From Escherichia coli (GTDB taxonomy: Bacteria > Pseudomonadota > Gammaproteobacteria > Enterobacterales > Enterobacteriaceae): DNA of 64,000 bases. Of the stretch, positions 5,533 to 51,262 are shown in pieces (position 1 is the first letter of the stretch; each line of letters starts with the position of its first letter). Below the pieces are notes generated by a model. It was not told the origin of the DNA. It ran no database searches and saw only the letters and a list, made by a program, of their open reading frames with translations. The position numbers were made by a program, and so were the translations under genes. The stretch is from the NCBI RefSeq assembly GCF_017348835.2, contig NZ_CP071375.1, one strand, 5' to 3'.

Positions 5533-6333
5533 ATGTACCAGGTTGTTGCGTCTGATTTAGATGGCACGTTACTTTCTCCCGACCATACGTTATCCCCTTA
5601 CGCCAAAGAAACTCTGAAGCTGCTCACCGCGCGCGGCATCAACTTTGTGTTTGCGACCGGTCGTCACCACGTTGATGTGGGGCAAATTCGCGATAATCTG
5701 GAGATTAAGTCTTACATGATTACCTCCAATGGTGCGCGCGTTCACGATCTGGATGGTAATCTGATTTTTGCTCATAACCTGGATCGCGACATTGCCAGCG
5801 ATCTGTTTGGCGTAGTCAACGACAATCCGGACATCATTACTAACGTTTATCGCGACGACGAATGGTTTATGAATCGCCATCGCCCGGAAGAGATGCGCTT
5901 TTTTAAAGAAGCGGTGTTCAAATATGCGCTGTATGAGCCTGGATTACTGGAGCCGGAAGGCGTCAGCAAAGTGTTCTTCACCTGCGATTCCCATGAACAA
6001 CTGCTGCCGCTGGAGCAGGCGATTAACGCTCGTTGGGGCGATCGCGTCAACGTCAGTTTCTCTACCTTAACCTGTCTGGAAGTGATGGCGGGCGGCGTTT
6101 CAAAAGGCCATGCGCTGGAAGCGGTGGCGAAGAAACTGGGCTACAGCCTGAAGGATTGTATTGCGTTTGGTGACGGGATGAACGATGCCGAAATGCTGTC
6201 GATGGCGGGGAAAGGCTGCATTATGGGCAGTGCGCACCAGCGTCTGAAAGACCTTCATCCCGAGCTGGAAGTGATTGGTACTAATGCCGACGACGCGGTG
6301 CCGCATTATCTGCGTAAACTCTATTTATCGTAA
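5533..6333 (+). CDS. yigL: HAD-family sugar-phosphate / pyridoxal-phosphate phosphatase YigL
   Basis: ORF track 5407..6333 overlaps pldB; internal Met43 (MYQVVASDLDGTLL, HAD motif I DxDGT) gives 266 aa as in K-12. Confidence 0.9.
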   Translation: MYQVVASDLDGTLLSPDHTLSPYAKETLKLLTARGINFVFATGRHHVDVGQIRDNLEIKSYMITSNGARVHDLDGNLIFAHNLDRDIASDLFGVVNDNPDIITNVYRDDEWFMNRHRPEEMRFFKEAVFKYALYEPGLLEPEGVSKVFFTCDSHEQLLPLEQAINARWGDRVNVSFSTLTCLEVMAGGVSKGHALEAVAKKLGYSLKDCIAFGDGMNDAEMLSMAGKGCIMGSAHQRLKDLHPELEVIGTNADDAVPHYLRKLYLS

Positions 6334-6408
6334 TCGTTCTTTATTTGGTCAGTTGTCAACCTGATACTTCGCTACAATGGATACTCGTTAATCAAAGAGT
6401 TTTCCATT

Positions 6409-7308
6409 GTGGCGCTACTTATCATCACCACGATTCTGTGGGCCTTCTCCTTTAGCTTTTATGGCGAGTACCTTGCGGGGCACGTCGATAGCTATTTTGC
6501 GGTGCTGGTGCGCGTTGGCCTGGCGGCACTCGTTTTTCTGCCGTTTCTGCGTACCCGTGGCAATAGCCTGAAAACAGTCGGCCTGTATATGCTGGTGGGC
6601 GCGATGCAGCTCGGCGTGATGTATATGCTGAGTTTCCGCGCTTATCTCTACCTGACGGTTTCCGAACTGCTGCTGTTCACCGTACTGACGCCGCTCTACA
6701 TCACGCTGATTTATGACATCATGAGTAAGCGCCGTCTGCGCTGGGGATATGCTTTTAGTGCCTTGTTGGCGGTGATTGGTGCCGGGATTATTCGCTATGA
6801 TCAGGTCACCGACCATTTCTGGACTGGCTTGTTGCTGGTGCAACTCTCCAATATCACTTTTGCCATCGGCATGGTGGGTTACAAACGCCTGATGGAAACT
6901 CGCCCGATGCCGCAGCATAACGCCTTTGCGTGGTTCTATCTTGGCGCGTTCCTGGTGGCGGTAATTGCATGGTTCTTGCTGGGAAATGCGCAGAAAATGC
7001 CGCAAACCACGTTGCAATGGGGCATTCTGGTGTTTCTTGGCGTGGTGGCTTCCGGGATTGGCTACTTTATGTGGAACTACGGCGCAACCCAAGTAGACGC
7101 CGGAACGCTGGGCATTATGAATAATATGCACGTTCCGGCAGGGCTGCTGGTTAACCTTGCTATCTGGCACCAACAGCCGCACTGGCCAACGTTTATTACA
7201 GGCGCGCTGGTGATCCTGGCCTCACTGTGGGTGCATCGTAAGTGGGTCGCTCCGCGCTCTTCACAAACGGCAGATGATCGCAGGCGTGATTGCGCGCTGA
7301 GCGAATAA
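6409..7308 (+). CDS. yigM: EamA/DMT-family inner membrane transporter YigM (biotin transporter BioP)
   Basis: 299-aa polytopic ORF, GTG start; recognised as YigM; 3' end overlaps metR convergently. Confidence 0.85.
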
Positions 7309-8149
7309 ATGCTTCTGTAATCGGCTGACGCTGCTCGCCATCGCGCACGGCGGCGTACAGCCGGCTCCACAAGCCTTCGCCCAGGGTTTTGGTCACCACC
7401 AGATCCTGGCGCTCAAAACTCTCTACTACCCAATGTGGTAGCGCGGCAATACCCATCCGCGCGGCAACCATCTGAATCAACAATAAGGTGTTATCGACGC
7501 TTTTCAGTGACGGGCTGACGCCTGCCGGCTGAAGAAAATGCCGCCAGACATCCAGTCGACTACGCTGCACCGGATAAATTAATAGCGTCTCGCAGGCGAG
7601 ATCTTCCGGTGTAATACGCGTTTTTGCCGCCAGTGGATGGTCAGGTGCTAACACCAGGCGTACTTCATAATCGAACATCGGCGAATAATGCAGGCCACTG
7701 CGCGGCAGGATATCGGAGGTCATCACCAGATCCAGCTCGCCCTGTTGCAACGCGGGCTGCGGGTCAAACGTCACGCCCGATTTAAAATCCATCTCTACCT
7801 GCGGCCAGTTCTTATGGAAATTTTCTAACGCGGGTGTCAGCCACTGAATACAGCTATGGCACTCAATGGCAATGCGCAGACGCGTCTGCTGCGGTTCATT
7901 GCAGGCTTGCAGTGCCTGGCTAATTTGTGGCAGCACCTGGTTTGCCAGTTGCAACAGGATTTCTCCCTGCGGTGTAAAGCGAAGCGGCTGGCTCTTACGC
8001 ACAAATAGCCGGAAGCCAAGGCGTTGTTCCAGATCGCTAAACTGGTGAGACAGGGCGGATTGCGTCTGATGCAACGTCGCCGCAGCGGCTGCGAGAGAGC
8101 CGCAGTTCCGCAACGCTTGTAGCGTTTTCAGGTGTTTTACTTCGATCAT
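7196..8149 (-). CDS. metR: LysR-type transcriptional activator MetR
   Basis: 317-aa ORF with N-terminal HTH; recognised as MetR; divergent from metE. Confidence 0.95.
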
Positions 8150-8384
8150 GAAAGTCCTTCACTTCGGCATGAATAATTTGCGCTTGAGGAATATACAGTA
8201 ACCGCCAATTATGGATGTGTAAACATCTGGACGGCTAAAATCCTTCGTCTTTTAAATTTATGGTGCGTTGGCTGCGTTTCTCCACCCCGGTCACTTACTT
8301 CAGTAAGCTCCCGGGGATGAATAAACTTGCCGCCTTCCCTAAATTCAAAATCCATAGGATTTACATATAATTAGAGGAAGAAAA
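8150..8384. promoter_or_regulatory. metR-metE divergent control region (promoters, MetJ met-box repeats, MetR site)
   Basis: Intergenic 235 bp; tandem met-box-like octamers AAACATCT GGACGGCT AAAATCCT TCGTCTTT at about 8221-8252; TATAAT-like hexamer and GAGGA RBS before metE ATG. Confidence 0.5.
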
Positions 8385-11762: not shown

Positions 11763-12524
11763 ATGTCCAAGTCTGATGTTTTTCATCTCGGCCTCACTAA
11801 AAACGATTTACAAGGGGCTACGCTTGCCATCGTCCCTGGCGACCCGGATCGTGTGGAAAAGATCGCCGCGCTGATGGATAAGCCGGTTAAGCTGGCATCT
11901 CACCGCGAATTCACCACCTGGCGTGCAGAGCTGGATGGTAAACCTGTTATCGTCTGCTCTACCGGTATCGGCGGCCCGTCTACCTCTATTGCTGTTGAAG
12001 AGCTGGCACAGCTGGGCATTCGCACCTTCCTGCGTATCGGTACAACGGGCGCTATTCAGCCGCATATTAATGTGGGTGATGTCTTGGTTACCACGGCGTC
12101 TGTCCGTCTGGATGGCGCGAGCCTGCACTTCGCACCGCTGGAATTCCCGGCTGTCGCTGATTTCGAATGTACGACTGCGCTGGTTGAAGCTGCGAAATCC
12201 ATTGGCGCGACAACTCACGTTGGCGTGACAGCTTCTTCTGATACCTTCTACCCAGGCCAGGAACGTTACGATACTTACTCTGGTCGCGTAGTTCGTCACT
12301 TTAAAGGTTCTATGGAAGAGTGGCAGGCGATGGGCGTAATGAACTATGAAATGGAATCTGCAACCCTGCTGACCATGTGTGCAAGTCAGGGCCTGCGTGC
12401 CGGTATGGTAGCGGGTGTTATCGTTAACCGCACCCAGCAAGAGATCCCGAATGCTGAGACGATGAAACAAACTGAAAGCCAAGCGGTGAAAATCGTGGTG
12501 GAAGCGGCGCGTCGTCTGCTGTAA
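11763..12524 (+). CDS. udp: Uridine phosphorylase
   Basis: ORF track from TTG 11757; ATG at 11763 gives [11 protein letters not shown], 253 aa, recognised as Udp. Confidence 0.95.
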
Positions 12525-50212: not shown

Positions 50213-51262
50213 TTATTTCCTGATAGGCAGGTAAACCGAGAACTCGGTATGCCCTGGCCAACTGGTAAATTCAATTTTGCCTGAATGCTGATCAATCAAA
50301 TTACGAGCGATGGATAAGCCAAGCCCGGTGCCACCTTCGCGGCCGCTGACCATCGGGTAAAACAGCGTATCCTGCAAATGAGGCGGAATGCCTGGCCCGT
50401 TATCTTCCACATCAATCCGCGCCGCCAGCCGGTAGCGCTCGCCGTGTAAGGTCAGTTGAAACGCGGTGCGGGTACGCAGAATGATTTCACCACCCTCCGG
50501 CCCCAGCGCCTGTAGCGCATTGCGCACAATATTCAGCAAGACCTGTTCAATTTGATCCGGGTCGTGCGCCAGTTCCGGCAGGCTGGGATCGTAATCACGA
50601 ATCAACCGCACGTTGTCCGGCAGTTCCATCGACACCAGCGTTACCACGCGTTCAGCTACTTTGTGAATACTTTCGGTAACGCGCGTACCGGGCAGCTGCG
50701 GCCCCAACAGACGGTCGACCAGATTTCGCAGCCGGTCCGCCTGTTCGATAATCACTTTGGTATATTCGAGTAGTGACGGGTCAGGTAATGCTTTGCTGAG
50801 TAGCTGCGCCGCGCCACGTAAACCGCCAAGCGGATTTTTAATCTCATGTGCCAGGCCGCGCACTAAATCACGGGCAGCAACCTGCTGGGCGTGCTGTAGT
50901 TGTTCCTGACTTAAGCGGCGCTGGTTATCCATCGGTGCCATCTCCAGCAGGATCATGCCGTCCGGCATACGCTGGGCCGTCACAGAAAGGATATGCGAGC
51001 GCCCGTCGATGACCAGCGTCACTTCGTTATCGGTAAAACCTTGCCCCGCCTCCAGACTTTCTTGCATCAGCTCGATATTTAATGAGAAGTAGCTCAACAG
51101 TTCCGGTAACGGTGTACCAAACAATTTGCGGGAGCTTTGGGCGAGCAGTTGTTGCGCGGCGGGGTTGGCGTAATGGATCGCCAGGTTGTCATCGATTAAC
51201 AAAATACTGTTAATCAGCGAGTTGAGGATCTGCCCAGCATCGGGCTGCGTGCCTGTTGCCAT
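50213..51262 (-). CDS. glnL: Nitrogen regulation sensor histidine kinase NtrB
   Basis: 349-aa ORF, PAS plus HisKA (H-box LAHEIKNPL) plus HATPase. Confidence 0.95.

Follow-up and report, generated by a model that had tools for sequence, protein, structure and literature searches.

A conserved 113-nt convergent overlap of yigM (bioP) and metR in which coding constraint is largely partitioned between the two frames

INTRODUCTION

Antisense sharing of sequence between bacterial neighbors takes several forms. In the excludons of Listeria, a long antisense transcript represses one neighbor and at the same time serves as the mRNA for the other. At the level of the coding frames themselves, the convergent orientation is the only one in which some long overlaps have been accepted as real, and conservation of most of these presumed real cases goes no further than very close species (Pallejà et al., 2008, PMC2478687).

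The present work concerns the convergent genes yigM and metR of Escherichia coli, whose 3' ends share 113 nt. By the account of Côté et al. (2016) and the design of the Keio collection, its deletions of metR and yigM reach into the partner gene. The overlap is already known: it is annotated in RefSeq and was noted in E. coli K-12 by Côté et al. (2016, mBio, PMC5120140), who recognized yigM as the biotin transporter BioP on genetic evidence, found that a metR deletion phenocopies the loss of yigM, and put down both the synthetic lethality of that deletion with bioA and its sensitivity to a BioA inhibitor to collateral disruption of yigM. We deal here with the same locus and the same overlap; conservation and frame constraint were not analyzed in that study, and what is added beyond it is a partition of the shared DNA into three segments and a set of natural truncated YigM alleles.

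RESULTS

The two genes and the geometry of their overlap

In the window, by which we mean the whole 64,000-nt stretch of E. coli DNA analyzed, yigM/bioP occupies 6409-7308 on the plus strand, from a GTG start to a TAA stop at 7306-7308, and encodes a 299-aa biotin transporter of the DMT/EamA family with 10 transmembrane (TM) helices. On the minus strand, metR extends from an ATG start at 8149 down to 7196, its TAA being the reverse complement of 7196-7198, and encodes a 317-aa LysR-type activator of metE/metH. Both assignments are well founded in the proteins themselves. YigM has two Pfam EamA repeats, the ten TM helices of a BioP transporter, and equivalog-level similarity to the family (TIGR00950, 309.9 bits against a cutoff of 230.2), and RefSeq gives its product name as "bioP: biotin transporter." MetR couples an N-terminal HTH_1 domain to a LysR_substrate domain, both recognized by Pfam, and matches its NCBIfam equivalog at full length (NF011950, 736 bits against a cutoff of 382, residues 1-317); PDB entry 5fo5 is residues 1-92 of the E. 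coli protein.

The convergent overlap spans 7196-7308 on both strands, encoding YigM codons 263-299 plus the stop in one direction and MetR codons 281-317 plus the stop in the other. A preliminary description of this DNA had proposed just such a 113-bp overlap, with about 37 last codons of each gene on opposite strands, and the ORF coordinates and RefSeq agree with it. The yigM stop (7306-7308) takes its first base from MetR I282 and its second and third from F281; the metR stop (7196-7198) lies inside YigM I263 (second and third bases) and T264 (first base). According to the ORF listing and the sequence, the phase is such that the first codon positions (cp1) of the two genes face each other, yigM cp2 faces metR cp3, and yigM cp3 faces metR cp2.

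RefSeq annotates both genes at full length, with exactly these coordinates, in an E. coli genome with 100% identity, and positions 6300-8300 are 100% identical to E. coli strain PE164. The gene order in the window, by the RefSeq annotation of the matching genome, is pldB-yigL-bioP(yigM)-metR-metE, with metR and metE divergent, which agrees with the known regulon. At an identity of at least 95%, the locus is found in 5425 of 5426 complete E. coli genomes. One of its 5430 matching places lies on a plasmid. In E. coli Z135-6 (H12, NZ_CP159632.1 2012480-2014498), the match covers only 42% of the 2-kb query and is split in two, and the annotation there has "hypothetical protein" and "LysR family transcriptional regulator" in place of metR, a pattern suggesting that metR may be interrupted in this strain.

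Among the approximately 58 annotated CDS of the window, 113 nt is by far the longest overlap, the others measuring 1, 4, 4, and 19 nt, so that the preliminary description was right to call it unusually long. The sole other convergent overlap annotated in the window, that of rfaH and tatD (approximately 51122-51125; 12333-12336 in locus L095), is a 4-nt overlap of the common short type, in contrast to the 113 nt of yigM/metR. A separate open frame of 255 aa on the minus strand (6415-7182) lies antisense to nearly all of yigM, in a frame that meets a single stop along the gene; its appearance is that of the "shadow" ORFs typical of coding regions with a G+C bias and not that of a gene.

Folded domains and tails face each other

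The domain boundaries of the two proteins fall within or close to the shared DNA. The Pfam EamA match ends at YigM residue 275 and the LysR_substrate match at MetR residue 288, and the solved regulatory domain of the Neisseria MetR (PDB 4ab5) aligns to residues 87-296 of the E. coli protein. The AF2 model of YigM (pLDDT 93) contains ten helices, the last of which covers residues 259-298, and in the final 19 residues its pLDDT, above 90 before them, drops to 74 and 69. Taken together, the ends of the two Pfam domains, the range of the 4ab5 alignment, and the drop in AF2 confidence place each folded part opposite the tail of its partner.

The overlap is conserved across Enterobacterales

A scan with one genome per species yielded 80 Enterobacteriaceae loci, which with the PE164 locus (L001) make 81 that were analyzed. 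The same geometry (YigM of 299 aa, MetR of 317 aa, and an overlap of 113 nt) is present in 78 of them, 75 being complete and three cut at a contig end. A MetR of 318 aa extends the overlap to 116 nt in two loci, and a MetR of 312 aa shortens it to 98 nt in one (Citrobacter gillenii). The 81 loci also include one YigM of 284 aa and one disrupted yigM. The latter is from Kluyvera genomosp. 3 YDC799 (L040), where the yigM frame is interrupted early on, a fixed-frame extraction showing several stops, and metR is intact; this yigM may be a pseudogene, carry an indel, or use a different start.

Outside the Enterobacteriaceae, the overlap is 113 nt in Yersinia, 98 nt in Dickeya, and 95 nt in Rahnella, and it is again 98 nt in a metagenomic relative (L088) with 57% YigM identity. 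In all four, YigM is 299 aa long and its stop lies on MetR codons F281/I282. The metagenomic locus was kept for its 3'-end geometry alone; its YigM (P0243) was dropped as a clean distant orthologue because an internal stretch reads like a shifted frame. The segment concerned, of about 45 aa ("VQVGGTGVSWRGGVGPGLFHVELWRH...," within the gene at 556-1455 of L088), resembles a +1-frame translation of E. coli yigM and may stem from two frameshifts that compensate each other or from misassembly of the Logan contig.

The two stops differ in their stability: the yigM stop is invariant across loci, and the metR stop is less fixed, with MetR ending at 311, 312, 317, or 318 aa in different lineages. MetR F281, which supplies two bases of the yigM stop, is invariant even in comparison with Neisseria; as can be read from the sequence, a synonymous TTC at this codon would turn the yigM TAA into TGA, which is still a stop. 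The bioP-metR-metE trio is kept together, and the other neighbor of yigM changes: E. coli has yigL there, Yersinia a Mem_trans gene, and Dickeya pagP.

The alternative raised in the preliminary description, that the yigM C-terminus is shorter than the open frame suggests, is rejected as a general statement, as the 299-aa length and the same stop hold across loci. Orthologues with a conserved earlier yigM stop, which it had named as counterevidence, were looked for across Enterobacterales, and none was found among the 81 Enterobacteriaceae loci, Yersinia, Dickeya, Rahnella, and L088; only minority alleles of 284 and 285 aa were encountered. More broadly, the yigM or metR frame could have been wrongly extended by an error of annotation or sequence, with the protein ending before the overlap. 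Long overlaps in databases are indeed mostly misannotations (124 of the 178 in convergent orientation that exceed 60 bp; Pallejà et al., 2008, PMC2478687), and both proteins here are 10 to 15 aa longer than their distant homologues. However, the C-termini are fixed by the first in-frame stop and not by a gene-calling choice, the same stops recur in 5422 E. coli genomes (at least 95% identity) and across Enterobacterales, and there is no frameshift relative to orthologues. Moreover, the overlap contains the points at which the EamA domain and the solved LysR regulatory fold end, and deletion of metR inactivates yigM function (Côté et al., 2016, PMC5120140). An artefact is thus effectively refuted and has hardly any probability left to it.

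The features by which real long convergent overlaps have been recognized (Rogozin et al., 2002; Pallejà et al., 2008) are present: both partners are bona fide functional genes, and the lengths of 299 and 317 aa are common throughout the Enterobacteriaceae, even though they exceed those of the distant homologues. It is the conservation of the overlap, in 80 species of Enterobacteriaceae and in three more Enterobacterales genera, and not its existence, that exceeds chance. The 3' extension is ancestral to the order and is no annotation error.

Constraint switches from one frame to the other

Per-site entropy was computed over 78 species, and changes were counted by Fitch parsimony on a tree of 73 to 75 species; the locus with the 284-aa YigM (L061) and that with the disrupted yigM (L040) were left out of the rate analysis. 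Because yigM cp3 faces metR cp2 and yigM cp2 faces metR cp3, the gene under protection can be told from the codon position at which changes occur. Both measures show a sharp switch, at about 7243-7254, from variation at yigM cp3 to variation at metR cp3, which divides the overlap into three segments.

In the first (7196-7242), YigM dominates, with the end of its TM helix 10 (codons 263-278) opposite the distal tail of MetR (codons 303-317). Here, yigM cp3 (metR cp2) shows 9.0 changes per site versus 1.6 to 2.3 at the other two positions (block taken to 7242 or 7245); the last TM helix of YigM is conserved, and MetR residues 303-317 are highly variable. Most fourfold-degenerate sites of YigM in this segment evolve at a normal rate (14 to 18 changes versus a mean of 17.2), the exceptions being V268, H276, and, to a lesser extent, L270.

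The second segment (7243-7254) is the core of dual constraint, TGGGTCGCTCCG, where YigM W279-V280-A281-P282 lies opposite MetR P302-R301-E300-A299. Entropy is zero at 11 of its 12 positions across the 78 species, the lone variable one being an A/V site. At the fourfold sites of V280 and P282 in YigM and of A299 and R301 in MetR, 0 changes were counted, versus means of 14 to 17 elsewhere. In the same set of 78 species, the MetR Pro302 codon CCC and the Arg301 codon CGA (7244-7249, minus strand) are invariant because no other proline or arginine codon fits the bases of YigM W279 and V280. Both CCC and CGA are rare codons in E. coli; their presence at MetR 301-302 is a visible translational cost of the overlap.

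In the third segment (7255-7308), MetR dominates, with the last helix of its regulatory domain (codons 281-298) opposite the cytoplasmic tail of YigM (codons 283-299 and the stop). Over the block 7246-7308, metR cp3 (yigM cp2) shows 5.6 changes per site versus 0.5 to 0.8 at the other positions. MetR residues 281-298 are almost invariant, and the changes in the YigM tail are radical (D/G, R/K/T, A/E/V).

Silent sites bear a further mark of the shared DNA. The cp3 changes in MetR codons 281-301 amount to 5.3 per site versus 12.1 outside the overlap, a value below that of every one of 260 windows of equal size; when the ends under double constraint are taken off (leaving codons 283-298), the value is 6.9 per site, and 7 of 265 windows are as low. 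The corresponding figure for YigM codons 263-280 is 8.5 per site versus 13.2 outside, with 1 of 245 windows as low. The rates are bimodal, most silent sites evolving normally and a few being frozen (YigM V268, H276, V280, and P282). A change of YigM V268 to GTT or GTC would end MetR at 312 aa, as is the case in Dickeya and C. gillenii, and the third position of H276, opposite MetR D305, is invariant. The invariance at V268 and H276 would imply selection on MetR S313, or against a stop at that point, and on D305. Between families, the codon identity of MetR is higher inside the overlap than outside it in 6 of 6 pairs (individual p values of 0.004 to 0.33), and the corresponding comparison for YigM shows no excess inside the overlap.

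These data bear on the reading that true dual coding is maintained by selection, both C-terminal tails being functional and both needed, with putative examples in a contribution of the basic cytoplasmic tail of YigM to topology or stability and of the Pro-rich tail of MetR to oligomerization or turnover. Such a reading would account for the approximate halving of silent-site rates inside the overlap in both genes, for the raised MetR codon identity between families, for the strict conservation of the 299-aa YigM length and the recurrence of "QTADDR" in its tail, and for the placement of MetR S313, D305, and P311 opposite invariant or near-invariant silent sites of YigM. Yet we consider it unlikely. 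Both frames are invariant only at 7243-7254 and at a few isolated sites, and YigM 283-299 and MetR 303-317 vary, which falls short of a fully dual-coding overlap. The silent sites of YigM lack extra conservation at inter-family depth, and MetR ends anywhere from 311 to 318 aa depending on the lineage, with an unconserved distal tail sequence. YigM occurs naturally at 284 and 285 aa, the alleles falling in clusters of 42 and 66 sequences, and nonoverlapping homologues do without the tails. Finally, the P/T/A/S/G/R-rich composition of the tails is what the phase would lead one to expect opposite G+C-rich third positions.

The orthologue alignment that the preliminary description had proposed for finding the frame under purifying selection thus gives a divided answer: yigM over 7196-7242, both genes over 7243-7254, and metR over 7255-7308. 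Its suggestion that both tails are real and mutually constrained holds insofar as both are encoded; as for mutual constraint, the burden is mostly partitioned, and constraint on both frames is confined to about 12 nt (7243-7254) plus scattered sites. The residual mutual constraint is real but modest. On the pattern of changes, the YigM tail is under weak residual selection, and the distal tail of MetR is under almost none apart from a few sites.

The tails resemble run-on extensions

Comparison with distant homologues shows that both proteins are longer at their ends. In E. coli YigM, the near-invariant N239 is followed by 60 residues, versus a median of 50 in 110 distant homologues, only 5 of which are as long. 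The three YigM homologues of about 50% identity whose context was examined are 282 to 294 aa long and do not lie beside metR. Neisseria MetR, compared as a protein alone, is 309 aa long and ends at about E. coli position 302. Across starting positions on the antisense strand of either gene, a run of at least 15 to 17 codons without a stop has a probability of about 0.46 to 0.57; long run-ons are therefore common, arising at about half of the starts, and the lengths of the tails need no special explanation. On this evidence, both tails look like run-on extensions of about 10 to 15 aa beyond the distant homologues compared.

Natural alleles speak to the importance of the YigM tail. An Enterobacteriaceae genome (MGYG-HGUT-00110; L061, the same as L093) has a TGA at YigM codon 285 (2353-2355) and hence a 284-aa YigM, and its MetR is left unchanged, since V296 (GTC) and R297 (AGG) are both Enterobacteriaceae consensus residues. 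A Salmonella genome (SRR5278823; L094) has a TAA at codon 286 (2356-2358) and a 285-aa YigM, together with a V296M change in MetR. From these rare natural alleles, the distal tail of YigM is probably dispensable, although the motif "QTADDR...NE" within it is recognizable from E. coli to Dickeya. Avoidance of stops was considered as the main cause of the open YigM tail and rejected: as read from the sequence, the MetR residues allow a stop in the YigM frame at only 3 or 4 dipeptide positions, and long antisense run-ons are common. The openness of the YigM tail is thus largely passive.

Convergent transcription at the locus

A further possibility is that the overlap is retained because convergent transcription across it, through polymerase collision or excludon-like antisense pairing, links the methionine/SAM status of the cell to biotin uptake, and this could coexist with a run-on origin of the overlap. 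No intrinsic terminator was found in or near the overlap on either strand, the single terminator-like match (7902-7918, inside metR) being within shuffle expectation, and each transcript must therefore extend into the other gene by at least 113 nt. Biotin synthesis consumes SAM via BioA, BioB, and BioC, which makes a physiological link conceivable, and the bioP-metR-metE trio stays together while the flank on the other side of yigM changes. Nevertheless, this synteny is an automatic consequence of the overlap, a literature search on antisense regulation at yigM found nothing relevant, and no Rfam match for a structured RNA or sRNA was found at E ≤ 1 in 6800-7700. Since the conservation pattern is also fully explained by protein-coding constraint in two frames, we regard such a link as improbable. 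The weak, consistent suppression of MetR-silent changes opposite the YigM tail could in part reflect a function at the level of the RNA or of the tail. The more specific proposal, that duplex formation or convergent transcription over the shared 95 to 116 nt reciprocally tunes MetR and the biotin importer and so couples methionine/SAM supply to biotin uptake, is a speculation to which we give slightly less weight still.

DISCUSSION

The explanation that we favor, and hold to be likely, is that the tail-to-tail overlap of yigM and metR is real and old, that the two genes are unrelated and function independently, and that the overlap arose by 3' run-on of both frames and was then frozen. The 3' ends of the two genes would have come into contact at or before the root of Enterobacterales, presumably through loss of a stop or a deletion that brought the gene ends together. 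Their essential parts meet over about four codons (7243-7254), with TM helix 10 of YigM ending at about W279-P282 and the last helix of MetR at about residues 296-302. Beyond this core, ribosomes would read the antisense of the partner as far as the first in-frame stop, a run-on that would add about 17 residues to YigM (283-299) and about 15 to MetR (303-317). The cost of sharing is borne mainly by these tails: as yigM cp3 pairs with metR cp2 and the reverse, changes that are silent in the partner are absorbed by the tails as amino acid changes. The YigM stop is pinned by the conserved I282/F281 of MetR, and the MetR stop is less pinned and has moved in evolution. The shared DNA now locks both genes together as well. 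We infer that the tails are largely dispensable, though they, above all that of YigM, may have some function.

Several practical and conceptual points follow from this arrangement. Any deletion, insertion, or recoding of either 3' end alters the other protein, and 7196-7308 has to be treated as shared in the engineering of the locus. Keio-collection phenotypes are already confounded in this way, the metR deletion acting as a biotin-transport mutant. Conceptually, the locus offers a clean and deeply conserved example of how a long antisense overlap can be tolerated: where a folded domain stands opposite the expendable tail of its partner, only about a dozen bases are left under true double constraint. 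A new biological question would open only if convergent transcription proved to be regulatory.

Set against described systems, the yigM/metR overlap resembles the long convergent overlaps accepted as real (Rogozin et al., 2002; PMC2478687) in that it joins well-characterized genes, exceeds 60 nt, is conserved between species, and involves no ambiguity of starts. Unlike most of the cases of Pallejà et al., it spans at least three families of Enterobacterales; their set required genes in KEGG pathways, and yigM probably lies outside it. A resemblance is also seen to overlaps produced by 3' extension after stop loss or deletion (PMC2478687, PMC3887535), each protein having about 10 to 15 extra residues that end at the first antisense stop. 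However, in contrast to extensions that stem from strain-specific mutation or sequencing error, this one is old and fixed in a whole order, and it involves both genes, whose functional cores touch at 7243-7254. Like the neighbors in an excludon, yigM and metR lie on opposite strands with no terminator between them, and their transcripts must overlap, a likeness that may be taken as architectural only. All in all, the overlap conforms to theoretical expectation for overlaps of convergent genes (Pallejà et al., 2008, PMC2478687).
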